64,000 bases of DNA from a virus. The notes beneath the pieces were generated by a model. The model worked only from the letters and a program-made list of their open reading frames with translations, did no database searches and was not told where the DNA came from. The translations under genes and the position numbers were made by a program. This document shows, in pieces, positions 5,994 to 47,771 of the stretch (positions are counted from its first letter, which is position 1; every line of letters begins with the position of its first letter). The stretch is from the IMG/VR virus record IMGVR_UViG_3300043410_001242. One strand, given 5' to 3'.

Positions 5994-6890
5994 ATGAAAT
6001 ATAGCATATTCCATCTTCAAGGTGGCATCGGAAAACATGTTGCAGCAACCGCAGTTGCAAAAGCAATTAAGAATACACATCCAGATAGAAAGTTAATTGT
6101 TGTATGTGCATATCCTGATATTTTTATTAATTTATCGTATGTGGATCGGGTATTCCAAATAGGAGCAACAAAATATTTTTATCAGGAATATGTTCAAGAC
6201 AAAGACTCAATTTTATTTTATCATGAACCATATTATACAACAAATCATATTCATAAACGTAAAAGACTAATCGAAAATTGGTGTGAGTTGTATAATATAC
6301 CATATTCTGGTGAAATGCCGGAAATAAAATTCAACAAATTACAATACAACATTTCAAAGGATATTTGGTCACGAAAGAAACCATTAATGATTTTACACAC
6401 TAATGGTGGAGTAATGGCAACAGATGCTAAACCATATGCATGGACCCGTGATATGCCCCCGACCCTTGCTCAAGAATTAATCGATTACTACAAGAAAGAT
6501 TATCATATCTTACAACTAACAAAAATGAATTCTCCAAAATTAGATGGTGCCGAACATGTCTTTTCAACACCCGATAAAATGTTATCTCTAATGGAGTATT
6601 TTAGTATAATACTTCACTCTAAAAAAAGAATACTTATTGATTCCTCAGTTCAACATGCGTGTGCTGCATTAAAAAAGAAATCAACAGTATTATGGAATGG
6701 AACAAGCCCTTCAGTATTTGGATATGATATGCATGATAATATATGTACTAATATCCCCTATGACTTTAAACTTCCTAACAGTTACTTGTTTGATTTTGAT
6801 TTTAACGGAAATGAAGTTGAATATCCGTTTGTAGACGATGTAAAATTGTTTGATATAAATATGATTATTGATTCGGTTAATAAACAATAA
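5994..6890 (+). CDS. GT9 (ADP-heptose:LPS heptosyltransferase-like, GT-B) protein
   Basis: GGIGKHVAATAVAKAIK N-term and IDSSVQHACAALKKKSTVLW C-term motifs. Confidence 0.65.
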   Translation: MKYSIFHLQGGIGKHVAATAVAKAIKNTHPDRKLIVVCAYPDIFINLSYVDRVFQIGATKYFYQEYVQDKDSILFYHEPYYTTNHIHKRKRLIENWCELYNIPYSGEMPEIKFNKLQYNISKDIWSRKKPLMILHTNGGVMATDAKPYAWTRDMPPTLAQELIDYYKKDYHILQLTKMNSPKLDGAEHVFSTPDKMLSLMEYFSIILHSKKRILIDSSVQHACAALKKKSTVLWNGTSPSVFGYDMHDNICTNIPYDFKLPNSYLFDFDFNGNEVEYPFVDDVKLFDINMIIDSVNKQ

Positions 6891-35724: not shown

Positions 35725-36128
35725 TGATTAACATTTCAAATTTAGTTGAAGTACGATTAATTGAGGAGGATGATTTTCTAAAAGTCAGAGAAACACTGAC
35801 TCGTATTGGTGTGGCCTCAAAAAAAGACAAGATACTGTATCAGTCTTGTCATATATTGCACAAGCAAGGACACTACTATATCGTACATTTTAAAGAATTA
35901 TTTTCGTTAGATGGTAAACCTACTGACATTTCTGAAAATGATTTGGCTCGTAGAAATGCAATTGCTAAATTATTGGAAGATTGGGGTCTTGTTGAAATTG
36001 TAAATAAGAAACAGATTGAGACTCCAGAACCTATTTTCTTGTCGCAGATCAAGATCATATCACACAAAGAAAAAGGTGAATGGGAATTAGTTCCGAAATA
36101 CAACATCGGAAAGAAAAAAGTCGTATAA
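35724..36128 (+). CDS. regA: Translational repressor RegA
   Basis: DDFLKVRETLTRIGVAS, LYQSCHILHKQG.YYIVHFKELF.LDG. Confidence 0.96.
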   Translation: MINISNLVEVRLIEEDDFLKVRETLTRIGVASKKDKILYQSCHILHKQGHYYIVHFKELFSLDGKPTDISENDLARRNAIAKLLEDWGLVEIVNKKQIETPEPIFLSQIKIISHKEKGEWELVPKYNIGKKKVV

Positions 36129-36276
36129 ATAATTATATCCCTCGGGATGGGACGCAAAGATCCACCTTAGGATCGTCTTGCCGTAGGAGCGTATGCCTAC
36201 TCCGGATCGGTAACCGGAACTATCACGCCTTCGGGGTGATACTTTAACATTAACTCGCTTTAATAGGAGAACTAAA
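36124..36276 (+). promoter_or_regulatory. Late promoter plus highly structured 5' UTR with ROSE-like RNA thermometer upstream of hsp20
   Basis: TATAAATA at 36124, five GC-rich hairpins, then CUCGCU (36254-36259) able to pair with AGGAG SD (36265-36269). Confidence 0.6.
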
Positions 36277-36726
36277 ATGACACATGCATATGGCAGAAAT
36301 CTGCTTCCTCTATCTGTTGGTTTTGACCATCTTCTCTCTACTCTTCAAGAATTCGAAGATATTGCCAAGCCATCAACATATCCTCCATACAATATTGTAA
36401 AGTTTGATGAAGATAATTATCAGATTCAAATTGCAGTTGCAGGATTTGGTCCTGATGAACTTGAAATTGAAGTGAAGGAAAACAAACTCACAGTAAATGG
36501 TGAAATTAAATCTGCATACACTTCAGATGTACAATTTCTACACCACGGTCTTGCATCCAGAGACTTCTCACACACGTTTAGATTGTCTGACACTGTTGTT
36601 GTAAAGACAGCTGATATTGTTAATGGTGTATTGAAGATTGATCTAGAGAATGTACTACCAGAAGAGAAGAAACCTCGCAAAATTCCTATTGGAAATGAAC
36701 CTCTCTTGACTTCTGACAAGAAGTAA
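36277..36726 (+). CDS. Small heat-shock protein Hsp20 (IbpA-like)
   Basis: YPPYNI, IAVAGF, HHGLASRDF, NGVLKIDL, PEEKKPRKIPI. Confidence 0.93.
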   Translation: MTHAYGRNLLPLSVGFDHLLSTLQEFEDIAKPSTYPPYNIVKFDEDNYQIQIAVAGFGPDELEIEVKENKLTVNGEIKSAYTSDVQFLHHGLASRDFSHTFRLSDTVVVKTADIVNGVLKIDLENVLPEEKKPRKIPIGNEPLLTSDKK

Positions 36727-36735
36727 TATATAATA

Positions 36736-36760
36736 GGGGGAAGAAATTCCCCCTTTTTTT
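36736..36760 (+). terminator. Intrinsic terminator
   Basis: GGGGGAA-GAAA-TTCCCCC followed by T7. Confidence 0.8.
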
Positions 36761-36763
36761 ATT

Positions 36764-36967
36764 TTGAGATTTGGAATGAAGAACAAGATCAAACCAGTTC
36801 TAAGAAAAGTTAGACCTCTTGGAAATTTAGAAGATATATATTACACATATTCAAATTGGGACACCAAATTGATTGATGGTGTTGAGTACATCTATGTGGT
36901 TAAGAATATGGGTACAAGAGATACACCTAAATTAATGCGTAAAGACAACTTAGAAACGGTAAAATAA
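36764..36967 (+). CDS. Small hypothetical protein
   Basis: ORF track; true start is probably ATG 36776. Confidence 0.55.
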   Translation: MRFGMKNKIKPVLRKVRPLGNLEDIYYTYSNWDTKLIDGVEYIYVVKNMGTRDTPKLMRKDNLETVK

Positions 36968-37128
36968 TGGCACTGAAACAATCAAATAAGAATCGCAAAA
37001 AGAATACTTCTAAACAGACACAAGAAGAAATTAATCCAATAAAATCCTGGTGGTGGTTTCCCAACAAACCTAAACTGTATATTGTTGGAACAGGAGTGTT
37101 AATTTTTGTTTTGTTATTTTTGATATAA
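36967..37128 (+). CDS. Small protein with C-terminal transmembrane helix (53 aa, not in track)
   Basis: MALKQSNKNRKK...WWWFPNKPKLYIVGTGVLIFVLLFLI; TAATG translational coupling. Confidence 0.55.
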   Translation: MALKQSNKNRKKNTSKQTQEEINPIKSWWWFPNKPKLYIVGTGVLIFVLLFLI

Positions 37129-37142
37129 CACAAGGGTATATT

Positions 37143-37508
37143 ATGAGACTTACTGGTCATGTTGAGAAATCTTGGGGCAATGAACTTATCTGGGCAACAA
37201 ATGATAAGTATTGTGGAAAACTACTAAATTTTAAGACAAACACTGAATTCTCCATGCACTTTCATTCTGAGAAAGATGAAAGTTGGTACGTCCTCAGTGG
37301 AAAATTTATTGTAAAATTTCTTGATACCAATACAGCCACGTTAAAACAACGCGAATTGTTACCAGGAGACACCTGGAGAAACGAACCGTTGTTACCACAT
37401 AAGTTGATATGCCTTGAAGAAGGAACGATCATTGAGGTGTCTACCGCAGACAGTGTGGAAGACAACTATAGAATTGCTCCTGGTGATTCACAAAGGAATC
37501 AAAAATGA
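37143..37508 (+). CDS. Cupin-fold sugar isomerase-like protein
   Basis: VEKSWG.E, SMHFH..KDESWYVLSG, PHKL, EVST. Confidence 0.75.
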   Translation: MRLTGHVEKSWGNELIWATNDKYCGKLLNFKTNTEFSMHFHSEKDESWYVLSGKFIVKFLDTNTATLKQRELLPGDTWRNEPLLPHKLICLEEGTIIEVSTADSVEDNYRIAPGDSQRNQK

Positions 37509-37930
37509 AACAGAAATTTCTGGATGCATACATGGATGTTGCCCATCGTTTTGCACAGTTATCTACCGCAAATCGATTACAGGTTGGAGCAATCATTGTG
37601 AAAGATGATAGAATTATTTCTATCGGATACAATGGTATGCCTGCCGGCTGGACAAATGTTTGTGAACACTTTGTTGACAATGGACAACAGTCCGGATTTG
37701 TAACTAAACCTGAAGTCATTCATGCGGAAGCAAATGCAATCGCAAAGCTTGCCAAGTCACCAGAAAGTGGTGTAGGATCCACAATGTTTCTTACACATGC
37801 ACCTTGTATAGATTGTGCAAAACAAATCTACACTGCTGGCATAGAGAAGGTCTTTTATAAAGAAGATTATAGAAGTTGCCAAGGTCGAGATTTTCTGTTA
37901 CAATGTGGAATTGAGGTTGTAAAAGTATGA
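37505..37930 (+). CDS. cd: dCMP deaminase
   Basis: GYNG, HAEANAI, PCIDCAK. Confidence 0.92.
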   Translation: MKQKFLDAYMDVAHRFAQLSTANRLQVGAIIVKDDRIISIGYNGMPAGWTNVCEHFVDNGQQSGFVTKPEVIHAEANAIAKLAKSPESGVGSTMFLTHAPCIDCAKQIYTAGIEKVFYKEDYRSCQGRDFLLQCGIEVVKV

Positions 37931-38058
37931 CTCAATGGCATGGTGGAAAAGGTTCCAGACCAAGAAATGTGGACAAAAAGAAGTTCGATGACAACTGGGA
38001 TCGAATTTTTGGTAAAAAAGATGAAAAAAAAGTGTTGCCAGATGAAAAAAAAAACTGA
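37927..38058 (+). CDS. Small basic protein (43 aa, not in track)
   Basis: MTQWHGGKGSRPRNVDKKKFDDNWDRIFGKK...; ATGA overlap with the cd stop. Confidence 0.6.
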   Translation: MTQWHGGKGSRPRNVDKKKFDDNWDRIFGKKDEKKVLPDEKKN

Positions 38059-38064
38059 TACAAT
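38035..38064 (+). promoter_or_regulatory. Sigma70-type promoter for the tRNA leader
   Basis: TTGCCA-N18-TACAAT with TG extension. Confidence 0.6.
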
Positions 38065-38086
38065 ACCTAAAAATTGAAAAAACTTG

Positions 38087-38094
38087 TATAAATA
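38087..38094 (+). promoter_or_regulatory. T4-type late promoter TATAAATA, 5 nt upstream of the leader ATG
   Basis: Exact consensus; would give an essentially leaderless mRNA. Confidence 0.65.
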
Positions 38095-38099
38095 AAAAC

Positions 38100-38228
38100 A
38101 TGACTACTAAAAATTTATTTAAACTCTTAACCATATCGATGCCCGTGTCAAGCACATGGACTCCAGGTTATCGCCTGAATTCCATTCAATGCGCGGAACA
38201 TGATAGAATCGGGGTTTGTGACAGTTAA
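38100..38228 (+). CDS. Putative attenuator leader peptide of the tRNA array (42 aa, all 20 amino acids)
   Basis: MTTKNLFKLLTISMPVSSTWTPGYRLNSIQCAEHDRIGVCDS*; codons 7-42 are 36 different codons. Confidence 0.75.
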   Translation: MTTKNLFKLLTISMPVSSTWTPGYRLNSIQCAEHDRIGVCDS

Positions 38229-38264
38229 AAAGTAGAATTACCAAATAACAATCACAAAACCCGA
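38209..38264 (+). promoter_or_regulatory. Anti-terminator hairpin of the putative attenuator
   Basis: TCGGGGTTTGTGA (38209-38221) pairs 12/13 with TCACAAAACCCGA (38252-38264), which overlaps the terminator 5' arm. Confidence 0.7.
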
Positions 38265-38287
38265 ACCCTAAAAAGTTCGGGTTTTTT
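38256..38287 (+). terminator. Intrinsic terminator (attenuator) before the first tRNA
   Basis: AAAACCCGAAC-CCTAAAAA-GTTCGGGTTTT-TT. Confidence 0.85.
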
Positions 38288-38326
38288 GTTATTAAGCTCT
38301 TTAAAAATATAGAACGTTTGTATAGT

Positions 38327-38401
38327 GGTGACTGTGGTGTAATGGTAGCACCTCTCTCTGTGAAAGAGAAAGCACGGGATCGATACCCGTCAGTCACCCC
38401 A
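38327..38401 (+). tRNA. tRNA-His(GUG)
   Basis: Cloverleaf, G-1, loop CT-GTG-AA, encoded CCA. Confidence 0.9.
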
Positions 38402-38402
38402 A

Positions 38403-38478
38403 GCCGGTTAAGCTAATCTGGTGAAAGCGCTTGTCTGAAGAACAAGAGAGCGTGGATCAAAACCACGAACCGGCACCA
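38403..38478 (+). tRNA. tRNA-Phe(GAA)
   Basis: CTTGT-CTGAAGA-ACAAG, CCA. Confidence 0.88.
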
Positions 38479-38483
38479 ATTTT

Positions 38484-38557
38484 GGGTCTTTGGTGAAATG
38501 GAATCACACCCTCCTTACAAGTGGGAGTCAGCGGATCGATACCGTTAAGACCTACCA
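38484..38557 (+). tRNA. tRNA-Val(UAC)
   Basis: Loop CT-TAC-AA, CCA. Confidence 0.85.
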
Positions 38558-38565
38558 AACAAAAT

Positions 38566-38642
38566 GCCCTTGTAGTGAAATGGAATTATCACGCATCGCT
38601 ACGGACGATGTATTGTGGGTTTGAATCCTGCCGAGGGTGCCA
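38566..38642 (+). tRNA. tRNA-Arg(ACG)
   Basis: CATCG-CTACGGA-CGATG, CCA. Confidence 0.88.
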
Positions 38643-38648
38643 ATTTAT

Positions 38649-38737
38649 GGAGGGTTATGTAACCTGGGATGTTACGTCTGGTTTGAACCCAGAGCGAGCC
38701 GAAAGGCCAGGAGTTCGATTCTGCCATCCCTCCGCCA
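38649..38737 (+). tRNA. tRNA-Ser(UGA)
   Basis: TCTGG-TTTGAAC-CCAGA, long variable arm, GCCA. Confidence 0.85.
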
Positions 38738-38862
38738 ATTATAGGAGAAAAGAAATGGGGAGTACGAGTATTTAAATTATCAATATGTTGTTGATGATTA
38801 TACATTATACACATATACGGATTTTATGAGTGACTTCATCATATTTTTTTCTTTTAGTTTTT

Positions 38863-38949
38863 AGAAGATGATATCAGATGGTTCTGATACTTGCTTGGAA
38901 AGCAATGTGGTCCGAAAGGGCTGGGGCTCGATTCCTCCGTCTTCTGCCA
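38863..38949 (+). tRNA. tRNA-Ser(GGA)
   Basis: TTGC-TTGGAAA-GCAA, long variable arm, GCCA. Confidence 0.8.
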
Positions 38950-38958
38950 ATTCAAAAC

Positions 38959-39046
38959 GGAAGATTAATCAGTTGGGAACTGGAACGGTTTGCTAAACCA
39001 GTTGAACCTGCAAGGGTTTGGGGATCGAGACCTCAGTCTTCCGCCA
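38959..39046 (+). tRNA. tRNA-Ser(GCU)
   Basis: Loop TT-GCT-AA, long variable arm, GCCA. Confidence 0.85.
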
Positions 39047-39052
39047 ATTTAT

Positions 39053-39129
39053 GGTAGTGTGTCCGAATGGGAAGGAAGCTGATTGCAAATCAGTTATGTT
39101 TGCGGGTTCGAATCCTGTCACTACCTCCA
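39053..39129 (+). tRNA. tRNA-Cys(GCA)
   Basis: GCTGA-TTGCAAA-TCAGT, U73, CCA. Confidence 0.9.
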
Positions 39130-39141
39130 AACAAAAAGTGC

Positions 39142-39170
39142 TTGACAAGGAAGACACTCTAGTGTATAAT
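39142..39170 (+). promoter_or_regulatory. Internal sigma70-type promoter in the tRNA array
   Basis: Perfect TTGACA-N17-TATAAT. Confidence 0.8.
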
Positions 39171-39197
39171 ATCTTCCATCAAGTGAGAGAAAGTTAT

Positions 39198-39274
39198 GGA
39201 CCTGTCGTCTACTTGGTTTAGGATACAAGATTTTCACTCTTGTGAACGGAGTTCGAATCTCCGCAGGTCTACCA
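39198..39274 (+). tRNA. tRNA-Glu(UUC)
   Basis: CAAGA-TTTTCAC-TCTTG, CCA. Confidence 0.9.
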
Positions 39275-39280
39275 AACAAT

Positions 39281-39366
39281 GCGTAAGCGCCGGAGTGGGA
39301 GAGCCGGGCCAGACTGTAAATCTGTTGTCTCTGACTGAATAGGTTCGAATCCTATATTACGCACCA
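39281..39366 (+). tRNA. tRNA-Tyr(GUA)
   Basis: CAGA-CTGTAAA-TCTG, long variable arm, CCA. Confidence 0.88.
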
Positions 39367-39371
39367 ATTTT

Positions 39372-39446
39372 GAGAGTGAAGCTTTAATGGTGAAGCATCT
39401 GGCTCTTAACCAGACGAAGAGGGATCGTTACCTTCCACTCTCACCA
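39372..39446 (+). tRNA. tRNA-Lys(CUU)
   Basis: TCTGG-CTCTTAA-CCAGA, CCA. Confidence 0.85.
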
Positions 39447-39449
39447 AAT

Positions 39450-39572
39450 GTGTTGCAACTAATGTCGGTGCTGTCGTTCTCCCGACTTAAAATAACCGTT
39501 AATACCAGAATGAATATCAACTAGGTTCGAAACTAGAAGAGACACGGACTGGAGTAGGTAACAACGACACCA
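39450..39572 (+). ncRNA. CCA-ending non-cloverleaf small RNA between two tRNA-Lys genes
   Basis: Ends ...AACGAC-ACCA followed by the usual AATTT spacer; T-loop-like CTAGG-TTCGAAA-CTAG; GTCGG/CCGAC hairpin. Confidence 0.5.
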
Positions 39573-39579
39573 ATTTTTT

Positions 39580-39653
39580 GGGGGTGTAATTCAATGGTAG
39601 AATAACTGGCTTTTAACCAGTCCACCGTGGTTCGATTCCACGTACCCCTACCA
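39580..39653 (+). tRNA. tRNA-Lys(UUU)
   Basis: ACTGG-CTTTTAA-CCAGT, CCA. Confidence 0.9.
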
Positions 39654-39658
39654 ATATT

Positions 39659-39732
39659 GCCCGATTAGTTCAAAGGTAGAACACGCAACTGATAATTGCG
39701 AAACGTTGGATCGATACCATCATTGGGCACCA
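39659..39732 (+). tRNA. tRNA-Ile(GAU)
   Basis: CGCAA-CTGATAA-TTGCG, CCA. Confidence 0.9.
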
Positions 39733-39737
39733 AATTT

Positions 39738-39831
39738 GTCTCTATAGTGTAACGGTAGCACTCCGGCTTTATACTCCGGCATGGCCCCAGATTAGGGCGT
39801 AGTGTAGGTTCGAATCCTACTAGAGACACCA
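39738..39831 (+). tRNA. Atypical tRNA-like RNA, anticodon probably UAU, with long extra arm
   Basis: 7-bp acceptor GTCTCTA/TAGAGAC+ACCA and canonical D and T arms; anticodon arm CCGG-CTTTATACT-CCGG; extra arm GCCC-CAGATTA-GGGC. Confidence 0.7.
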
Positions 39832-39836
39832 ATTGA

Positions 39837-39910
39837 AGAGGATTAGGCTAGTGGTAAACCTTGGGATTCATATTCCTATATCATCAGTTCGATTCTGATA
39901 TCCTCTACCA
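39837..39910 (+). tRNA. tRNA (CAU; Met or Ile2)
   Basis: Loop TT-CAT-AT, CCA. Confidence 0.78.
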
Positions 39911-39916
39911 AACAAT

Positions 39917-39992
39917 GGGTATGTAGTAATCTGGTGATTACGCTTGTCTGTCGAACAAGTTTAGGAGGGTTCGATCCCCTTCATACCCGCCA
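39917..39992 (+). tRNA. tRNA-Asp(GUC)
   Basis: CTTGT-CTGTCGA-ACAAG, GCCA. Confidence 0.88.
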
Positions 39993-39998
39993 ATTTAA

Positions 39999-40076
39999 TG
40001 TGCCTTAGCGATCACGGTGATTGCATCTCGCTGTTAACGAGAATGAAGCTCAGTTCGATTCTGAGAGGCACAGCCA
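39999..40076 (+). tRNA. tRNA-Asn(GUU), copy 1
   Basis: TCTCG-CTGTTAA-CGAGA, GCCA. Confidence 0.88.
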
Positions 40077-40082
40077 ATTTAT

Positions 40083-40158
40083 CTCTGTAAAGTGTTACTT
40101 GGCAGCATACTCCGTTTGGGGCGGAGTGGTGAAGGTTCAAATCCTTCTACGGAGACCA
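40083..40158 (+). tRNA. tRNA-Pro(UGG), copy 1
   Basis: CTCCG-TTTGGGG-CGGAG, CCA. Confidence 0.88.
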
Positions 40159-40163
40159 AATAT

Positions 40164-40238
40164 GGGGACAGTAATGGGTTACGGAGTTGCCTTGCAAGCT
40201 ACTTGTCTAGAAGGGTTCGATTCCCTCGGTCTCCACCA
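40164..40238 (+). tRNA. tRNA-Ala(UGC), atypical D arm
   Basis: G3:U70 pair, loop CT-TGC-AA, CCA. Confidence 0.78.
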
Positions 40239-40243
40239 ATTAT

Positions 40244-40320
40244 GATCTTATCGTCTAGAAGGTTAAGGACACTGGTCTCTCAAACCGGAAAATTGGGTTC
40301 GATCCCCAATAAGATCACCA
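40244..40320 (+). tRNA. tRNA-Glu(CUC)
   Basis: CTGGT-CTCTCAA-ACCGG, CCA. Confidence 0.88.
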
Positions 40321-40326
40321 AATGAT

Positions 40327-40403
40327 GCGGATATAGCCCAATTGGCAGAGGCGGTAGGTTCAAACCCTACTCAGTGTCAGTTCAAATCTGACTATCCGTA
40401 CCA
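40327..40403 (+). tRNA. tRNA-Leu(CAA), short variable region
   Basis: GTAGG-TTCAAAC-CCTAC, CCA. Confidence 0.85.
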
Positions 40404-40405
40404 AC

Positions 40406-40439
40406 TTGACATTTGTTGAACACTGTGTTATTATAAATA
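40406..40439 (+). promoter_or_regulatory. Overlapping sigma70-type (TTGACA-N17-TATTAT) and late (TATAAATA) promoters
   Basis: Upstream of the HNH gene. Confidence 0.6.
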
Positions 40440-40462
40440 TAATAAAAAGATGAGAGGGTTCA

Positions 40463-41044
40463 ATGAATAAAAAAGACGAAATAATTAGATTGTTAAATGA
40501 AGGTAAATCTGTTTCTGAAATAGTTTCTTTAGTAAAATGTTCTAAAGGTACTGTTTCATACTATAGAAAAGAGCTTGGTTTGATTTATGAAAATCCAAGA
40601 AAACCAATAGATTCATTTCATTGGAGTGTCATACAACAAAATTATGATGAAGGTTGTTTATCTGTTTCTCAAATTTGTAAAAAGTATGGAATTTCAAGAA
40701 ACAATTTATTAGAAGCTAAAGAAAAAGGTTTATTTAATATAATACCTCAATCATACAATGATGACGAAGTATTTGTGGAAAATTCTGATTATTCTAGACA
40801 TTCATTAAAGAAAAGAATAATTAAACAGAATTTAATGGAATATAAATGTCAATGTTGTGGTATTGGTAATATGTGGAATAATATTGAATTGTCGTTACAA
40901 TTAGACCACATAAATGGAATAAACAACGACAATAGAATAGAAAATTTAAGATTCTTATGTCCTAATTGTCATTCACAACAAGACACATATGCGGCAAAGA
41001 ATCGGAAAAATAACCCGAACAGAGTTGCAAAAAAGTATGGTTAA
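40463..41044 (+). CDS. HNH homing endonuclease with N-terminal HTH domains
   Basis: CQCC..W....LQLDHINGINNDNRIENLRFLCPNCHSQ; N-terminal HTH. Confidence 0.9.
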   Translation: MNKKDEIIRLLNEGKSVSEIVSLVKCSKGTVSYYRKELGLIYENPRKPIDSFHWSVIQQNYDEGCLSVSQICKKYGISRNNLLEAKEKGLFNIIPQSYNDDEVFVENSDYSRHSLKKRIIKQNLMEYKCQCCGIGNMWNNIELSLQLDHINGINNDNRIENLRFLCPNCHSQQDTYAAKNRKNNPNRVAKKYG

Positions 41045-41045
41045 T

Positions 41046-41119
41046 ATCTCGTTAGTGTAGCAGTAACACGCTAGTCTCCAAAACTAGAATCAGGGGCGCG
41101 AAACCTCTACGGGATGCCA
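41046..41119 (+). tRNA. tRNA-Trp(CCA)
   Basis: CTAGT-CTCCAAA-ACTAG, GCCA. Confidence 0.85.
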
Positions 41120-41141
41120 ATTTAAAAAAGGAAATAATATA

Positions 41142-41318
41142 ATGAAAGTAACTGAATCAGAAGATTGTACCGATTGGCCAGAACGATTGGAAAAGATTGT
41201 TGAAGATTTAAATAATAAGAATCCAGACCTAAACCTTATCAGTATGCAACCTATGACTGCTCCAACTGGAAAGATTTTTAAGTTACGATTGAGAGAAGCT
41301 AAGAATAATGAAATATAA
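41142..41318 (+). CDS. 58-aa protein containing a gp23 major-capsid motif (not in track)
   Basis: QPMTAPTGKIFKLRLR vs gp23 QPMTGPTGLIFAMRAR (11/16 identical); AGGA SD. Confidence 0.65.
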   Translation: MKVTESEDCTDWPERLEKIVEDLNNKNPDLNLISMQPMTAPTGKIFKLRLREAKNNEI

Positions 41319-41484
41319 AGCGATTGACATTGTGAATTGGTCTTGTTCCAAACAATCTGATAACAGATGGATACCAGCAAGACCTTTGCCTTATTATGGT
41401 TGGTGGGGCGTAAAGACCAGAATTAAATGTGCGTGGTTTGTTCTCATTGGAAAATATGACGCATTAGATTGGGAGGATCAATGA
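41308..41484 (+). CDS. 58-aa hypothetical protein (WxPARP motif)
   Basis: MKYKAIDIVNW...WIPARPL...RIKCAWFVLIGKYDALDWEDQ; overlap-coupled. Confidence 0.55.
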   Translation: MKYKAIDIVNWSCSKQSDNRWIPARPLPYYGWWGVKTRIKCAWFVLIGKYDALDWEDQ

Positions 41485-41612
41485 ATAAATTAAGTTTTTC
41501 GGAATGGAAAGAGTTGACTGATTTCAGTAAGGAACCACCAATGCACGAAGAAGATATTCTATTAGAATATGAAGAATATCTGAATAACTTAGAAAAAGTT
41601 GAGGAAGAATAG
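41481..41612 (+). CDS. 43-aa acidic hypothetical protein
   Basis: GGAGG SD and ATGA overlap. Confidence 0.5.
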   Translation: MNKLSFSEWKELTDFSKEPPMHEEDILLEYEEYLNNLEKVEEE

Positions 41613-41634
41613 ATTTTACTAAAAAGGTGTTAAC

Positions 41635-42108
41635 ATGATATTGAGGGAAATAAACTTAGATGAAGTAAGAGAATTCATTAATGCACAAAGTCCAGAAACC
41701 TGTGTCTATCTTGGTTCAGACTCAGAAAGACATAAGATTGATGGAAGATGGTATGCAGATTATACGACTTGTGTTATTGTGCATATTGATGGAGAACATG
41801 GTTGTAAAGTATTTGGTGAAGTTAAGAGAGAACTTGACTATGACCAGAAGAAGAACAAACCTTCCATGCGCCTAATGAATGAAGTCTATAATGTATCAGC
41901 GCTCTTCAGTGAACTAAAAGATGTTCTTGAAGATAGATATGTTGAAGTTCATCTTGACCTTAATCCAGATGTTCGTTATGGTTCTTCTTGTGTTATTCAA
42001 CAAGCAATAGGATACATAAGAGGAACTTGTAACCTAACACCAATGGTTAAACCAAACAGTTGGGCTGCATCTCATGCTGCTGACCGTTTGAAGGATTTGC
42101 TCCCATAG
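41635..42108 (+). CDS. RNase H-like (YkuK/DUF458-type) protein
   Basis: VYLGSDS, RLMNEV, EVHLDLN, KPNSWAASHAAD. Confidence 0.75.
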   Translation: MILREINLDEVREFINAQSPETCVYLGSDSERHKIDGRWYADYTTCVIVHIDGEHGCKVFGEVKRELDYDQKKNKPSMRLMNEVYNVSALFSELKDVLEDRYVEVHLDLNPDVRYGSSCVIQQAIGYIRGTCNLTPMVKPNSWAASHAADRLKDLLP

Positions 42109-42173
42109 TTTGAACGGTAAAACGATTCCTTGGTAAGGAATAAACGATGGTTCGACTCCATCTAGGAGCTCCA
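42099..42173 (+). tRNA. tRNA-Thr(GGU)
   Basis: ATTCC-TTGGTAA-GGAAT, CCA; overlaps the upstream CDS end by 10 nt. Confidence 0.85.
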
Positions 42174-42179
42174 ATTAAT

Positions 42180-42257
42180 GCCTCCGTACACCAATCTGGT
42201 AGAGTGAGCGGTCTTAGAAGCCGTAAAGTGTCAGTTCGAATCTGACCGGGGGTACCA
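42180..42257 (+). tRNA. tRNA-Leu(UAG), short variable region
   Basis: GCGGT-CTTAGAA-GCCGT, CCA. Confidence 0.85.
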
Positions 42258-42266
42258 AATTAATGG

Positions 42267-42295
42267 TTGACAAAGTGTGGAATGTTTGATATAAT
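42267..42295 (+). promoter_or_regulatory. Sigma70-type promoter
   Basis: TTGACA-N17-TATAAT with TG extension. Confidence 0.8.
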
Positions 42296-42314
42296 GTTGC
42301 ACACAATGAATGAA

Positions 42315-42398
42315 GCGGGTGTGGTGAAATGGTAGACGCAAGGGACTTAAAATCCCTCGGAGAAATCCGTGTCGGTTCGAGTCCGACCACCCGTACCA
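42315..42398 (+). tRNA. tRNA-Leu(UAA)
   Basis: AGGGA-CTTAAAA-TCCCT, long variable arm, CCA. Confidence 0.92.
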
Positions 42399-42402
42399 AA
42401 TC

Positions 42403-42478
42403 GGGCCTCTAGCATAACGGTTAATGCAGCAAACTCATAATTTGTTGACTCTCGGTTCGAATCCGAGGGGGCCCACCA
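42403..42478 (+). tRNA. tRNA (CAU; Ile2 or Met)
   Basis: GCAAA-CTCATAA-TTTGT, CCA. Confidence 0.85.
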
Positions 42479-42498
42479 ATTAAAAAAAAGGAGATAGT

Positions 42499-42678
42499 AT
42501 GAACTGTATTTTGAATTCTTTGATGATTATTATTGTTTTTGCTTTTTTTGCGGTGGCAGGAATTTTTGGATTAGAAATGTATGAACAACACAAAGCAGTA
42601 GAAGCTGGATTACAGCAATGTGTTGTTGCAATTAATTCAAACACATACGAAGCAGTATGGCAGAAAGAATGTAAGTAA
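42499..42678 (+). CDS. 59-aa protein with N-terminal transmembrane segment (not in track)
   Basis: AGGAG SD; MNCILNSLMIIIVFAFFAVAGIFGL... Confidence 0.6.
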   Translation: MNCILNSLMIIIVFAFFAVAGIFGLEMYEQHKAVEAGLQQCVVAINSNTYEAVWQKECK

Positions 42679-42688
42679 CAGTTTTTTT

Positions 42689-42782
42689 GGACGGTTGTGT
42701 CCTGCCACTACTCGCAGCGACATGATCGGTAGGACTGCCATCCTGCGAAAAGTCAATCTGGCAGGATTGATGAATGTATCCA
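42689..42782 (+). ncRNA. Structured CCA-ending small RNA candidate
   Basis: GTCCTGCC/GGTAGGAC and ATCCTGC/GCAGGAT stems; ends TCCA followed by an AATTT spacer. Confidence 0.45.
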
Positions 42783-42794
42783 AATTTTTTTCAT

Positions 42795-42870
42795 GCCGCC
42801 ATAGTCTAATGGAGAGGGCAACGCTCTTCTAAAGCGTAAGGTAGGGGTTCGAATCCTCTTGGCGGCGCCA
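42795..42870 (+). tRNA. tRNA-Arg(UCU)
   Basis: ACGCT-CTTCTAA-AGCGT, CCA. Confidence 0.9.
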
Positions 42871-42879
42871 AATTAATGG

Positions 42880-42908
42880 TTGCCAAAATGGCATATATAA
42901 AGTATAAT
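42880..42908 (+). promoter_or_regulatory. Sigma70-type promoter
   Basis: TTGCCA-N17-TATAAT. Confidence 0.65.
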
Positions 42909-42919
42909 GTATGAACAAT

Positions 42920-42993
42920 TTCGGGATCGTCTAATGGTAGGACATGTGACTTTGACTCACAGAATCGAGGTTCGAGCCCTTGTCCCGAAACCA
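42920..42993 (+). tRNA. tRNA-Gln(UUG)
   Basis: TGTGA-CTTTGAC-TCACA, U1:A72, CCA. Confidence 0.9.
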
Positions 42994-43001
42994 GTTTAAA
43001 T

Positions 43002-43075
43002 GCGGGTATAGTTTAAAGGTAAAACAGAACCTTGCCAAGGTTCAGTTGATAGTTCAATTCTATCTACCCGCTCCA
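43002..43075 (+). tRNA. tRNA-Gly(GCC)
   Basis: GAACC-TTGCCAA-GGTTC, UCCA. Confidence 0.9.
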
Positions 43076-43083
43076 ATTTAAAT

Positions 43084-43159
43084 GCGGATATAACTCAATT
43101 GGTAGAGTGTCAGCCTTCCAAGCTGTACGTTGCAGGTTCGAGTCCTGTTATCCGCTCCA
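43084..43159 (+). tRNA. tRNA-Gly(UCC)
   Basis: CAGC-CTTCCAA-GCTG, UCCA. Confidence 0.92.
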
Positions 43160-43180
43160 ATTTAAGGTAAGGAGTATATT

Positions 43181-43342
43181 ATGTCTGGTAGTGTAGTAAA
43201 GCGATGCGGTTGTAAAGGCACACCTTCACACAGTTCTGATTATCAGGACCAAAAGTATGGTGATGGTATGAGAGTGATGTGCATGGATCAGAAGAAGGTT
43301 GAAGCAGTTTGTACTATTTGTGGAAAAACTCATAAGGTGTAA
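43181..43342 (+). CDS. 53-aa putative zinc-binding protein (not in track)
   Basis: AGGAG SD; CGC...H...YQD..YG.GMRV...CTICG. Confidence 0.6.
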   Translation: MSGSVVKRCGCKGTPSHSSDYQDQKYGDGMRVMCMDQKKVEAVCTICGKTHKV

Positions 43343-43344
43343 TT

Positions 43345-43554
43345 ATGAAAGGTATCAAACATAAACATCCAATGCAAACTCGTCATGGTAGAACTCGTTA
43401 TAAGGCATATTCACATATTGAATTGATGCTGATGTATAAGAAAGAGTCTACTCCCAAAAAGAAACATAAAATCATTGAAGAAATTAATAGAAAACTAAAG
43501 AATCTTGGTGTTGTGTTTCGAGTTAGTAAATCAAATCCAGAATTAAATATATAA
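43345..43554 (+). CDS. Small basic hypothetical protein
   Basis: 69-aa ORF in track. Confidence 0.5.
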   Translation: MKGIKHKHPMQTRHGRTRYKAYSHIELMLMYKKESTPKKKHKIIEEINRKLKNLGVVFRVSKSNPELNI

Positions 43555-43563
43555 AGATTAACT

Positions 43564-43638
43564 GCCCCTCAAGCATAAGTGGCGATGCACTTGACTTGTA
43601 ATCATGAGAAATCGGTTCGATTCCGGTGAGGGGCTCCA
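43564..43638 (+). tRNA. tRNA-Thr(UGU)
   Basis: Loop CT-TGT-AA, CCA. Confidence 0.88.
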
Positions 43639-43694
43639 AATGCAGACTGATAGGAAAGACTATCATCTTTTTGTTAACAATTAAAGGAGAAACT

Positions 43695-44051
43695 ATGACT
43701 TTTATTAAATCATTTATTGCGGCAATTGCTTTGTTCGGCACTTTCAGTGTGGCTAATGCTACTGTATCACCTGCCGGTGGTAACATCGTTACTGTTGGTT
43801 GTGCTGCTGATGCGCCTACCGGAGCAAATGTATATTCTGTAAATGCTGCAATTCTTAACGGTAGTGTAACTGATTCTTTGACTCTACCAACTGGAGTAGC
43901 CGCAGGGAATGCATGTGGAGTCGCACTAAATGCTCTTAGTGCAGTAACTTGTGCAACCGGTAAGACTTGGGTTCTTGTGAATGAACCAACAAATATTACC
44001 ATTGACAATACTGGTTACTCACTACAACAGTTTGTATTCCGTTGTCAGTAA
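43695..44051 (+). CDS. Secreted/periplasmic hypothetical protein
   Basis: AAGGAG SD; signal peptide MTFIKSFIAAIALFGTFSVANA; four Cys. Confidence 0.7.
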   Translation: MTFIKSFIAAIALFGTFSVANATVSPAGGNIVTVGCAADAPTGANVYSVNAAILNGSVTDSLTLPTGVAAGNACGVALNALSAVTCATGKTWVLVNEPTNITIDNTGYSLQQFVFRCQ

Positions 44052-44100
44052 TATAAACTAAATGTGATATAAAATCCTCCTTGATATCGAGTATAATATA

Positions 44101-44195
44101 TCACGAAACATCGAAAACCAGAAGTGATGTAAAATAAAACACTGGCGTGAACTAGAGCGGTTATAACGATATGATAACGCTGGATTTCGTAACCA
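44101..44195 (+). ncRNA. CCA-ending small RNA candidate
   Basis: ACGAAA/TTTCGT closing stem plus AACCA; two internal hairpins; TATAAT just upstream. Confidence 0.45.
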
Positions 44196-44203
44196 GTAAC
44201 TTT

Positions 44204-44281
44204 CCGAGTGTAGTTCAGTTTGGTTAGAATACGTGCTTTGGGAGCATGGGGTCGGGGGTTCGAATCCCTCCACTCGGACCA
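44204..44281 (+). tRNA. tRNA-Pro(UGG), copy 2
   Basis: CGTGC-TTTGGGA-GCATG, CCA. Confidence 0.92.
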
Positions 44282-44287
44282 ATTTCT

Positions 44288-44363
44288 TGGTAGGTGCGTG
44301 ATAGGTAATACGGGTTGACTGTTAATCAATTTCATGTGGGTTCGAATCCCACCCTACCAGCCA
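44288..44363 (+). tRNA. tRNA-Asn(GUU), copy 2
   Basis: GTTGA-CTGTTAA-TCAAT, GCCA. Confidence 0.85.
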
Positions 44364-44380
44364 ATTTAAGTGAGATATAT

Positions 44381-44629
44381 ATGAGTTATAGACCAACAGG
44401 TAAAAATGTACTGATTGAGAGAATTGCTGCTTCTAAGCAAACTGAATCAGGAATCATTCTAAAATCATCAGAAGAACCTGATCGTGCAAAAGTTATTGCA
44501 ATTGGTCCAGAAGTTGATGAAGTTAGTATTGATGAGATTGCTGTAGTTAATTGGAATACTGCAACAAAGATTGAAGATGAATTATATATTATAAATATTG
44601 ATAACGTTGTTTTGGTTATCGAAGACTAG
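44381..44629 (+). CDS. groES: GroES-like co-chaperonin
   Basis: RPTGKNVLIE...KQTESGIIL...AKVIAIGPEV. Confidence 0.85.
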   Translation: MSYRPTGKNVLIERIAASKQTESGIILKSSEEPDRAKVIAIGPEVDEVSIDEIAVVNWNTATKIEDELYIINIDNVVLVIED

Positions 44630-44634
44630 TTAAT

Positions 44635-44710
44635 TGCGGGTTAGATTTCTGGTGAAATCACCGGTCTCATAAGCCGGTCCAGAGTAGTTCGATTCTGCTA
44701 CCCGCTACCA
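44635..44710 (+). tRNA. tRNA-Met(CAU), probable initiator
   Basis: U1:U72 mismatch, TGCGGG start, CCGGT-CTCATAA-GCCGG, CCA. Confidence 0.82.
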
Positions 44711-44814
44711 ATTAACGTCCGGACATGCCTCTCATAGAAGCACACACAGTCATCTGGAATTGACCAGTGAACACCAAAGACGTTTGGTACTACGGAATTT
44801 TTATTATAAACACG

Positions 44815-44846
44815 GCCCACCCATGTTCGCATCGGGTGGGTTTTTT
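44815..44846 (+). terminator. Intrinsic terminator closing the tRNA region
   Basis: GCCCACCCATG-TTCG-CATCGGGTGGG-TTTTTT. Confidence 0.85.
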
Positions 44847-44860
44847 ATGCCTAATTACTC

Positions 44861-44889
44861 TTGACAGATTTAATACTTTGTGATATAAT
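44861..44889 (+). promoter_or_regulatory. Sigma70-type promoter for the gp43 operon
   Basis: TTGACA-N17-TATAAT with TG extension. Confidence 0.8.
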
Positions 44890-44919
44890 TGTTTTGTTTA
44901 ACTGCGGAGGAAAATAGTA

Positions 44920-45231
44920 ATGGAAATTATTGCAATTAAGTTAGTCACCGGTGAAGAAGTTCTTGGTGAAGTTGTAGACACAGACCGTAATGGATACTGG
45001 AGGTTGAGAAACCCTGTAGGAATCTCGATTGTTCGTGGTCCTGATGGTGCACCTAATGTAGGATTCTCTCCCTTCCCACTACATGCAGAACAAAAGTCTG
45101 GATTTGAAATTGACATTGCATACAGCAATGTAGTATACTCCTATACTCCAGCTGAAGATTTCAGGTCAAATTATGATCAAATCTTCGGTACAGGTATTGT
45201 TGTTCCCAATAAAAAGATTATCACCGGTTAA
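44920..45231 (+). CDS. Conserved T4-like hypothetical protein
   Basis: IKLVTGEEVLG...Y.QIFG.GIVVP. Confidence 0.7.
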   Translation: MEIIAIKLVTGEEVLGEVVDTDRNGYWRLRNPVGISIVRGPDGAPNVGFSPFPLHAEQKSGFEIDIAYSNVVYSYTPAEDFRSNYDQIFGTGIVVPNKKIITG

Positions 45232-47771
45232 TGAGTAAAGCATTCTATACAAACGTTTCTGTATCTGGCATCCACATCCAATATCGGGGTGTGGATTCTA
45301 AAGGTGCTCGAGTAAAAAGACTAATCGAGTACTCTCCTTCTTTGTATCTACCTTCAAAAAGAGAAACAAAGTTCAAATCTCTACATGGAGACTATCTCCA
45401 ACAAAAGATCTTTGGTAACATTAAAGAAGCCAGAGATTACATCAAGCATTTTGATGGTGTTGCTGGTGCCAATAAGATTTATGGCAATTCTCGTTTTGAA
45501 TATGCTTTTATTGCAGATCAGCATAAAGGCATGATTGAATGGGATATGAGCAAAGTTCTTATTGGCGTTCTTGATATCGAAGTCGGGTCGGAAAATGGTT
45601 TTCCTGACCCCTACGAAGCGAACGAACCAATCACAGCCATCACTATATCTTATCTCAACGGTCGAACCTACGTCTTTGGATGTGGTGATTATGAGAAACA
45701 AGGTGATGAGATATACTACAAGTGCAAAGATGAGTGGACTCTCTGTAAAGAGTTCCTTAAACTTTGGACTGAATACTGTCCTGATGTTCTGACTGGTTGG
45801 AATACCAAGTTCTTCGATATTCCATATATTATCAATCGATTTCGTAAAATTCTTGGTGCACCTGATACCAAAAAACTTTCACCCTGGAATTACATTTCAG
45901 AGAGAAAGACTGTCATCAATGGCCGAGAAATGACAGCATATGTGATAGATGGTGTTGCAAATCTAGATTATCTTGAACTCTACAAGTGGTACGCTCCAAA
46001 TGGCAAGACTCAAGAATCATATCGTCTAGACAATATTGCTCATGTTGAACTTAAAGAACGTAAATTATCATATGAAGAATATGGTAATCTTCACAATCTT
46101 TATAAAGAGAATTATCAACTATTCATTGAATACAACATTAAAGACGTTGACTTGATTCTTAGACTGGAAGATAAACTAAAACTTCTTGAACTTGGTTTGA
46201 CTCTGGCTTATGACACCAAATCAAACTATGAAGACATTTTTGCACAAACAAGAATGTGGGACTCTCTTTGTTATTCTTATTTGTTGGAAAGAAATATAAT
46301 TGTTCCTCCAAAAGTGATCAAAGAGAAAGACTCTGCATTTGAAGGTGCTTATGTTAAAGAACCTCAAGTTGGTATGCACAATTGGGTTGCATCATTCGAC
46401 TTGGACAGTCTTTACCCACATTTGATGATGCAATATAATATTTCACCTGAAACGATTATTGAACCTGAAGACTACACACCAGTAATGCGTAATATTCTGT
46501 CTCAAGGTGTTACAGTCGATAAGATGTTGAAGAAACAGGTTGTTATCGAAGGACTTGAACAAGCAACAATCACACCGAATGGACAATTCTTTAGATCTGA
46601 TATTCAAGGTTTTCTTCCAAAGATGTTGGAAGAGATGTATGAAGATCGTAAAAAGTTCAAGAAGATGATGTTGGAAGCAAAGCAACAGTATGTGAATGAA
46701 AAAGATCCACAGAAAAAGTTTGAACTATCTAAGTTGGTGGCTAGATATAACAATCTGCAATTGGCTAAAAAAGTTGGTTTGAACTCTGCTTATGGCGCTC
46801 TTGGTTCACAATACTTCAGATTCTATGATCTTAGAATGGCACTTGGTGTTACATCTGCCGGGCAGCTTTCAATTCGATGGATTGAAGGTAAACTTAATGA
46901 ATACATGAATAAACTTTTGGAGACAAACCGTGATTACGTTATTGCATCAGATACGGACTCAATTTATCTCAACCTTGGTCCGCTTGTGGACAAGTTCGTA
47001 CAACAAGAGAAATCAATTGAAGCAACAATCTCCATCATGGACAAGGTCTGTGAGGATAAGATACAACCATTTATTGACAGAAGTTACGCTGAGCTTGCTA
47101 CTTACGTTAACGCTTACAAACAAAAAATGCGAATGAAACGTGAGGCACTTGCAAACAAAGGTGTTTGGACTGCCAAAAAGCGTTATATTCTGAATGTATA
47201 CAATAATGAAGGCGTTCAGTATGACGAACCAGACTTAAAAGTTATGGGTCTTGAAATGATTAAGTCTTCCACTCCTTCTGCCATCAGAGAAAGAATGAAA
47301 GATACTATCAAACTCATGATGAATGGTACTGAATCTGATGTACAAGCATTTATTGAGAACTTTAGAAAACATTTCAAAGAATTGCCAGCAGAAGAGATTT
47401 CTTTTCCTCGCGGCGTGAATGGTCTTTCTAAATGGTCAGATCAGTCACAACTGTACAAGAAGGGTACGCCTATTCATGTCAAAGGAGCAATTCTATATAA
47501 TATGTTGTTGAAACAAAAGAATCTGGATAAGAAATATCCACTGATTCAAGAAGGTGAAAAGTTGAAGTTCACCTATCTCAAAATGCCGAATCCACTCAAA
47601 GATACGGTCATTTCATATCCGTCTAAACTGCCTACAGAAATGGGTCTTGATGATTATATTGATTATGACACACAGTTTGATAAGGCATTTCTAGACCCAA
47701 TTAAGATTATTCTTGATTGCATCGGATGGAAAACAGAAAAAACAAGTTCGTTAGATGATTTTTTTAGTTAA
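45231..47771 (+). CDS. gp43: DNA polymerase gp43 (family B)
   Basis: DIEV, GWN..FFDIPY, SFDLDSLYP, LNSAYG, SDTDS, KKRY. Confidence 0.98.
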   Translation: MSKAFYTNVSVSGIHIQYRGVDSKGARVKRLIEYSPSLYLPSKRETKFKSLHGDYLQQKIFGNIKEARDYIKHFDGVAGANKIYGNSRFEYAFIADQHKGMIEWDMSKVLIGVLDIEVGSENGFPDPYEANEPITAITISYLNGRTYVFGCGDYEKQGDEIYYKCKDEWTLCKEFLKLWTEYCPDVLTGWNTKFFDIPYIINRFRKILGAPDTKKLSPWNYISERKTVINGREMTAYVIDGVANLDYLELYKWYAPNGKTQESYRLDNIAHVELKERKLSYEEYGNLHNLYKENYQLFIEYNIKDVDLILRLEDKLKLLELGLTLAYDTKSNYEDIFAQTRMWDSLCYSYLLERNIIVPPKVIKEKDSAFEGAYVKEPQVGMHNWVASFDLDSLYPHLMMQYNISPETIIEPEDYTPVMRNILSQGVTVDKMLKKQVVIEGLEQATITPNGQFFRSDIQGFLPKMLEEMYEDRKKFKKMMLEAKQQYVNEKDPQKKFELSKLVARYNNLQLAKKVGLNSAYGALGSQYFRFYDLRMALGVTSAGQLSIRWIEGKLNEYMNKLLETNRDYVIASDTDSIYLNLGPLVDKFVQQEKSIEATISIMDKVCEDKIQPFIDRSYAELATYVNAYKQKMRMKREALANKGVWTAKKRYILNVYNNEGVQYDEPDLKVMGLEMIKSSTPSAIRERMKDTIKLMMNGTESDVQAFIENFRKHFKELPAEEISFPRGVNGLSKWSDQSQLYKKGTPIHVKGAILYNMLLKQKNLDKKYPLIQEGEKLKFTYLKMPNPLKDTVISYPSKLPTEMGLDDYIDYDTQFDKAFLDPIKIILDCIGWKTEKTSSLDDFFS

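Follow-up and report, generated by a model that had tools for sequence, protein, structure and literature searches.

Introduction

The enterobacterial leaders trpL, hisL, pheL, thrL, leuL and ilvL each consist of a short open reading frame (ORF) followed by an intrinsic terminator, the 5′ arm of which can pair alternatively with the 3′ end of the ORF. An unhindered ribosome leads to termination, whereas a stalled ribosome leads to read-through. In leaders of the trpL type, one to three cognate amino acids occur in runs, and the genes controlled encode biosynthetic enzymes. The cases of leader-peptide attenuation known to us to date concern a single amino acid or a small number of them, and we know of little that has been established about the regulation of phage tRNA genes. 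Here we analyze a leader with this arrangement that lies in front of the tRNA gene array of a T4-like phage, in the 64,000-nucleotide (nt) stretch of IMG/VR record IMGVR_UViG_3300043410_001242 (hereafter the window).

We computed in silico the ORF and its conservation, signs of its translation, its content of all 20 amino acids, the covarying alternative structures and its constant place before tRNA arrays. On balance these features lead us to favor the view that the leader of the tRNA operon is a ribosome-mediated transcription attenuator of the trp/his type, the signal probably being the overall supply of aminoacyl-tRNA. As in the trpL-type systems, the predicted outcome is termination behind an unhindered ribosome and read-through behind a stalled one.

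Results

Alternative RNA structures at the end of the leader ORF

The leader ORF runs from an ATG to a TAA stop codon (positions 38100–38228, with the stop codon at 38226–38228; this and the other elements described below are on the plus strand). It has 42 sense codons, 36 of which are distinct, and encodes all 20 amino acids; the peptide is the one given in an earlier sequence-only reading of the window. Homologous ORFs are present in relatives. That reading had also pointed out that TCGGGGTTTGTGA at 38209–38221, within codons 37–41, could pair at 12 of 13 positions with TCACAAAACCCGA at 38252–38264. We refer to these strands as region 2 and region 3, respectively. The predicted duplex has an energy of −18.9 kcal/mol, compared with −5.7 ± 1.9 kcal/mol for shuffled sequences.

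The intrinsic terminator (38256–38291) was found by a terminator scan, which placed its hairpin at 38256–38285. The hairpin has the stem AAAACCCGAAC/GTTCGGGTTTT, the loop CCTAAAAA and a folding energy of −20.2 kcal/mol, and a T-tract lies behind it. Antiterminator and terminator exclude each other, since region 3 serves as the 3′ strand of the former and as the 5′ arm of the latter. The antiterminator hairpin of the window has an energy of about −19.5 kcal/mol. When the leader is folded to minimum energy without a ribosome, the terminator is intact and region 2 is bound to a segment near the beginning of the ORF; this predicted partner, region 1 (AAACTCT, 38121–38127), pairs with GGGGTTT of region 2. 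Folding over 38071–38300 gave a z score of −4.65. No Rfam family reached its threshold: the nearest match, RF00506 (Thr_leader; 25.3 bits, E = 0.28, gathering score 55), covered only the terminator (38235–38291). Similarly, no T-box riboswitch was matched in Rfam at E ≤ 1 within 36000–46000.

The leader belongs to a family in which the alternative pairing covaries

Related loci were collected in two ways. We took 80 related IMG/VR loci anchored on the neighboring dCMP deaminase gene, where we found tRNA genes preceded by a small ORF homologous to the leader and, about 25 nt beyond it, a terminator. A pattern scan of IMG/VR for the conserved terminator loop and 3′ arm, in which neither ORFs nor tRNAs were criteria, gave at least 100 further loci. 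Together they yielded at least about 50 unique members defined by a peptide motif, most of them from the terminator pattern scan and the rest from the anchored loci, and at least about 60 unique members defined by context alone (a terminator with a tRNA no more than 160 nt behind it). The leader–terminator–tRNA arrangement is shared by a family in uncultured T4-like phages of IMG/VR. The members are related, and the P values given below are not those of independent trials.

Other collections contained little. Among 50,697 GenBank phage records, neither the DNA of the leader nor its peptide had a homologue. A family profile had only 21 matches in a collection of 5.8 billion proteins, all of them unnamed or annotated as hypothetical and none with a Pfam family; gene callers had often lengthened these proteins upstream through the promoter. 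A PHROG search gave no family for the leader peptide, and none for a 43-residue ORF just upstream of it that is described below.

The geometry that the sequence-only reading had likened to trp, with a leader ORF, an antiterminator strand in its last codons and a terminator, is conserved in the relatives. Regions 2 and 3, with the sequence between them, form one hairpin in all 17 of 17 subfamily representatives (−12.8 to −24.1 kcal/mol); its closing stem joins the ORF end, which is G-rich, to the terminator's 5′ flank and arm, which are A/C-rich. A MAFFT alignment had region 3 out of register, and covariation was measured by comparing the duplex energies of cognate and swapped partners, together with per-sequence tables of pairs. 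The end of the ORF with its own terminator arm had a mean energy of −18.1 kcal/mol, whereas swapped partners gave −14.7 ± 0.55 kcal/mol (P<3e-5); none of 36,911 derangements matched the cognate energy. The two arms of the terminator, which served as a positive control, gave −15.4 (cognate) and −10.5 (swapped). Compensatory pairs between regions 2 and 3 include GTGA/TCAC in the window, TAGG/CCTA in relative L027, GTA/TAC in L105 and GGGGTC/GACCCC in L102. Stem changes in the relatives' terminators are likewise compensated, and the loop is kept.

A further hairpin lies in the center of the leader. In most relatives its 5′ arm is a core of the TATCGC/TATCAC type, which in the window corresponds to TATCGC (38169–38174, Tyr-Arg codons); its arms covary weakly (P=0.03). 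In L005 and L025 the region 2 motif GGGGGTTGTGGAG is kept and the reading frame over it is off by one base, and one subfamily has a nucleotide-invariant core in the leader.

Amino acid and codon diversity of the leaders

As had been noted for the window, its leader has used all 20 amino acids by codon 35, and codons 7–42 are 36 codons without a repeat. We reproduced the earlier hand estimate for such a run: with uniform usage and the position of the run fixed in advance, 36 distinct codons in a row have P = 1.75e-6. With a free start within a 42-codon ORF the probability was 1.5e-5 under uniform usage, and no such run occurred in 200,000 trials with the phage's own codon usage; the same was true with the local base composition.

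Among the unique family peptides (28–44 residues, counting the formylmethionine start), 30 of 43 contain 20 amino acids and 39 of 43 contain at least 19. In the set defined by context only, restricted to leaders of 25–45 codons, the corresponding values are 30 of 60 and 42 of 60, and even mini-forms of 25–26 codons have 17–18 amino acids. Segments of equal length cut from real proteins of these loci reach 20 with a probability of 2e-4 to 8.5e-3, and stop-free random ORFs of the same base composition with a probability of 6e-4 to 1.6e-2. The composition is specific to the frame, mean amino acid variety being 19.6 in the leader frame compared with 15.4–17.2 in the other frames. When all 10,615 unique small ORFs (25–45 codons) in the DNA examined were considered, 43 contained all 20 amino acids; 29 of these 43 were leaders, although leaders made up only about 61 of the set. 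Only 14 of the approximately 10,550 non-leader ORFs did so, corresponding to an enrichment of about 360-fold in the leaders.

All 20 amino acids are present in 14 of 17 subfamilies, and the positions of the rare residues shift between them. For example, Trp precedes Tyr-Arg in the window, L027 and L153 and follows it elsewhere. Similarly, when the Y[RH]T site is occupied by His or Arg, the other residue is often placed elsewhere in the leader.

The claim that the leader samples the whole decoding repertoire is supported for amino acids and not for codons. Given the peptides, 536 distinct codons were observed, compared with 524 expected under uniform synonymous usage (P=0.04; P=0.079 for the window alone) and 494 ± 7 under the codon usage of phage genes. 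Selection at the codon level is not supported, the leaders being indistinguishable from uniform synonymous usage, and a “pan-codon” design is not borne out. The run of 36 distinct codons is accounted for by full amino acid coverage together with flat synonymous usage.

The leader ORF is likely translated

The leader frame is open in every member even though the peptides are only 16–38% identical to that of the window, and the other five frames contain 1–3 stops on average. Leader ATG starts lie 6 nt past TATAAT or 5 nt past TATAAATA, spacings that match the geometry of leaderless mRNAs, and most GTG or TTG starts have GGAG 6–8 nt upstream. Within subfamilies the ratio of nonsynonymous to synonymous polymorphism (pN/pS) is 0.09–0.43, and variation is greatest at the third codon position. 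These data, although indirect, agree with one another and indicate that the leader ORF is likely translated.

The sequence-only reading had expected that related leaders would show covarying antiterminator and terminator stems and high codon diversity with little conservation of the peptide. The covarying stems were found, and so was the diversity, in amino acids instead of codons. The peptide, however, is partly conserved, as the core ..EY[RH]T..C[GA]D..W...G[VF]C is common to the relatives. This is partly because the same codons form RNA helices: the codons under the strongest conservation lie within helices, and a change between Arg and His in the core (CGC/CAC) is paired with a synonymous GGC/GGT change on the opposite strand.

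Promoters upstream of the leader

A promoter scan identified a σ70-type promoter, TTGCCA-18-TACAAT with a TG extended −10 element, at 38035–38064. It aligns with TTGACA-17-TATAAT of L027. Transcription from it is predicted to start near 38071, giving an AU-rich 5′ untranslated region of about 29 nt without a Shine–Dalgarno (SD) sequence. We also read from the sequence the motif TATAAATA at 38087–38094, which ends 5 nt before the ATG and which, from the established T4 consensus, we take to be a late promoter. The motif recurs in L027 and L040 at the same 5-nt distance from the start. A late transcript from it would be predicted to begin at or adjoining the AUG and hence to be leaderless.

The upstream 43-residue ORF (MTQWHGGKGSRPRNVDKKKFDDNWDRIFGKK..., 37927–38058) overlaps the stop codon of the dCMP deaminase gene and holds the −35 box of the leader's promoter. 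Conserved copies were found by tblastn in L027, L050, L001, L073, L056 and L059, in some of them elsewhere in the tRNA region.

The tRNA array downstream of the leader

The first gene of the array, tRNA-His(GUG) (38328–38401), starts 40 nt after the T-tract of the terminator, with no room for a promoter between them. A link between leader and array had been proposed from the window alone and holds throughout the family: the first tRNA lies 8–117 nt past the terminator in all 47 of 47 motif-defined members with enough downstream DNA. It is usually tRNA-Gln, and tRNA-His in the window. In 11 members, including the window, the gap is 8–50 nt and leaves no room for a promoter; therefore the tRNAs there would be transcribed only through the terminator. 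The leader of the tRNA precursor contains GCTCTTTAAAAAT (38296–38308), a box that resembles the consensus for boxA of rrn operons. Its pattern, G[CT]TC[TA]TTAAAAA, is found in 40 of 47 relatives and, where a second promoter exists, is always downstream of that promoter.

With default settings, ARAGORN found 31 tRNAs for 19 amino acids in the window's array. Relaxed settings added tRNA-Ala(UGC) and two tRNA-Ser genes, giving 34 genes and 20 amino acids, so that the coverage of all 20 claimed for the array is upheld. The tRNA-Ala(UGC) gene (40164–40238, 75 nt), which completes the 20 amino acids, lies between tRNA-Pro and tRNA-Glu and has a weak Rfam match (23 bits) to transfer-messenger RNA. 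The two low-scoring tRNA-Ser candidates (38866–38949 and 38959–39046, with GGA and GCU anticodons) were found only at the relaxed threshold, in a 316-nt gap past tRNA-Ser(UGA). At 94 nt, tRNA-Ile(UAU) (39738–39831) is of unusual length for a tRNA-Ile. Two ORFs lie inside the array, one for an HNH endonuclease (40463–41044, phrog_10822) and the other of unknown function (41635–42108, phrog_11311). The promoter scan recovered the internal promoters noted earlier at 39142, 42267 and 42880 and a further one at 40406.

Genomic setting of the window

The window is a T4-like phage sequence with 36% GC, as judged from markers such as dCMP deaminase, Hsp20, a head scaffold protein and a DNA polymerase of the gp43 type; identity of the latter to polymerases of cultured cyanomyoviruses does not exceed 50%. 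A strong terminator that looks bidirectional (AGGGGGAAGAAATTCCCCCT plus a T-run, 36735–36754) follows the Hsp20 gene (36277–36726) and overlaps the end of a σ70-type promoter starting at 36706 that matches at 11 of 12 positions.

Discussion

A model for attenuation of the tRNA operon

Our model is as follows. Transcripts would begin either at the early σ70-type promoter or at the late TATAAATA promoter, in the latter case with their 5′ end at the AUG, and a ribosome would translate the 42-codon leader. A ribosome arriving at the stop codon without delay would mask or sterically block region 2; regions 3 and 4 would then pair, the terminator would form and transcription would stop before tRNA-His. 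If the ribosome were instead delayed at an earlier codon, region 2 would be free as region 3 emerges and the antiterminator hairpin would form, allowing RNA polymerase to pass the boxA-like box into the tRNA genes. From the size of ribosome footprints, a delay in about the first three quarters of a leader leaves region 2 able to capture region 3. Because each amino acid occurs about once or twice in the leader, transcription of the tRNA genes would rise whenever any one aminoacyl-tRNA ran short or elongation slowed in general. The tRNAs would relieve the shortage, and restored supply would shut the operon down again. We infer that the switch operates at all, the direction in which it does so and the signal that it senses.

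A more specific proposal is that the leader is a “pangram”, a 25- to 45-codon ORF selected to contain all 20 amino acids, so that one attenuator would monitor every aminoacyl-tRNA and feed back on the phage's own tRNA genes. We rate the chances of this part of the model as about even. If true, it would amount to a universal sensor of decoding capacity, which could also respond to host defenses that cleave tRNA. The further suggestion that the array is an anti-defense “first-aid kit” is speculation. The comparisons nevertheless lend substantial support to the core of the sequence-only idea, provided that “pan-codon” is replaced by “pan-amino-acid” and the scope is limited.

That limit concerns which tRNA genes are controlled. 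The proposal had been that the leader governs the complete array, and the promoters argue otherwise: strong internal promoters serve most of the window's array, namely the later tRNAs, and 36 of 47 relatives have a strong σ70-type promoter (TTGACA/TTGCCA-16/17-TACAAT) between the terminator and the first tRNA, so that the attenuator there would only add to a constitutive supply. Arrays without any leader also exist, in L056 and L059. These two (6598–6763 and 6700–6865, respectively) match L073 in their promoter and in their first tRNA, tRNA-Gln, and only in L073 is a leader–terminator cassette of about 205 nt found between them; we therefore conclude that the cassette was gained or lost as a unit.

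Several other observations weigh against the model. The pairing of regions 1 and 2, which is needed for a default-off state, showed no covariation in the swap test. The stop codon begins 9–33 nt past the start of region 2, and in the longer forms a terminating ribosome would consequently not cover region 2 directly. The early transcript of the window's leader has no SD site. Only 17–19 amino acids lie upstream of the zone in which a stall frees region 2, and Val, Ala, Gly and His are often found only in the last leader codons. Finally, because the members of the family are related, the P values overstate independence.

Alternative explanations

The ORF could be a small phage gene of the ordinary kind, equipped with a promoter and a terminator of its own, whose peptide of 30–44 residues (with two frequent Cys, and Tyr and Trp) acts in trans, for example in tRNA metabolism or host defense. 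Its association with tRNA genes would then be synteny only, and the pairing at its 3′ end a by-product or a feature of mRNA stability. Functional small phage peptides do exist, T4 Stp being one, and both the partly conserved core with pN/pS below 1 and the independent tRNA promoter right past the terminator in most relatives fit such a gene. We nonetheless consider this explanation unlikely. It does not account for the presence of at least 19 amino acids in 25–45 residues in 70% of members, for the covariation of the ORF 3′ end with the terminator arm, for the 11 members in which the tRNAs are left without a promoter or for a cassette inserted between a tRNA promoter and its tRNA. Moreover, the peptide has no Pfam or PHROG family, and the conservation that seems to favor a functional peptide falls on the codons that form RNA helices, including the CGC/CAC change with its synonymous GGC/GGT change opposite. 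At the other extreme, the element could be an untranslated structured RNA, either a small RNA or a processing or 3′-end element of the upstream unit, in which the reading frame is fortuitous. The stable folding of 38071–38300 (z = −4.65), the nucleotide-invariant core of one subfamily and the retention of GGGGGTTGTGGAG across a frame shift would be in keeping with this. However, a fortuitous frame would hardly be open in all members while the other five contain 1–3 stops, nor be preceded by a well-spaced GGAG at most GTG or TTG starts and elsewhere begin with ATG at the predicted 5′ end. Substitutions also show a three-base periodicity, and Rfam offers no family at threshold, only the sub-threshold Thr_leader match on the terminator. 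We therefore regard an untranslated RNA as very improbable.

A third possibility is closer to the model. The attenuator may be real but report only the coupling of ribosome and RNA polymerase, reflecting ribosome availability or an early/late switch through leaderless translation, and not the supply of amino acids or tRNA; the content of all 20 amino acids would then have another cause. As both readings assume a real attenuator, geometry and covariation fit them equally well. Leaderless starts directly behind a promoter would suit a coupling sensor, and the amino acids that occur only in the last codons are placed where a stall would be poorly sensed. What speaks against it is composition: the all-20 content is frame-specific, is kept across subfamilies at 16–38% identity and is about 360-fold enriched, and no other selective reason for it is apparent. 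This explanation also seems improbable to us, and an attenuator that senses aminoacyl-tRNA supply is the interpretation that we carry forward.

Significance and comparison with known systems

If leaders are indeed selected for all 20 amino acids, they would represent a new sensing logic, in which one switch reports total decoding capacity. They would also provide a testable link between translation stress, whether from codon-usage mismatch, starvation or tRNA-targeting defense, and the expression of phage tRNA genes. The element is self-contained and only about 190 nt long and can therefore be tested in a reconstituted transcription–translation system even though no host is known. It is abundant in metagenomes and, being compact, might be put to use as a reporter for the capacity of translation.

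In full-text literature searches, neither a leader peptide or attenuator before phage tRNA genes nor a leader with all 20 amino acids was found to have been reported. Compared with the trpL-type leaders, the phage leader appears to have each of the structural hallmarks of a leader-peptide attenuator and lacks the run of cognate codons, the defining trait of the classical examples: 19–20 amino acids are used about once or twice each, without a run, and the leader precedes tRNA genes and is phage-encoded. The pheM leader of the pheST operon resembles it in applying leader-peptide attenuation to a component of the translation apparatus instead of biosynthesis, but that leader is cellular, specific for Phe codons and controls phenylalanyl-tRNA synthetase. 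T-box riboswitches likewise tie tRNA status to the choice between antiterminator and terminator, although they do so by binding one uncharged tRNA directly and without a leader ORF. With the leaders of rrn operons the phage leader may share a boxA-like box, of putative function here, placed past the promoter in the transcribed leader of a long noncoding stable-RNA operon; rrn leaders have no leader peptide or attenuator. Besides the pheST attenuator, the nearest counterparts are the upstream ORFs that respond to general translation stress, such as the erm and cat leaders, the mycobacterial whiB7 upstream ORF and toiL-topAI of E. coli (PMC12121999; 10.1101/2023.06.02.543512). In these systems a small ORF reports several kinds of ribosome stalling, as opposed to the level of one metabolite, and opens downstream expression, as we propose for the phage leader. 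They respond mainly to antibiotics or particular starvation and control resistance or stress genes, and none is reported to contain all 20 amino acids or to stand ahead of tRNA genes, as the phage leader does.

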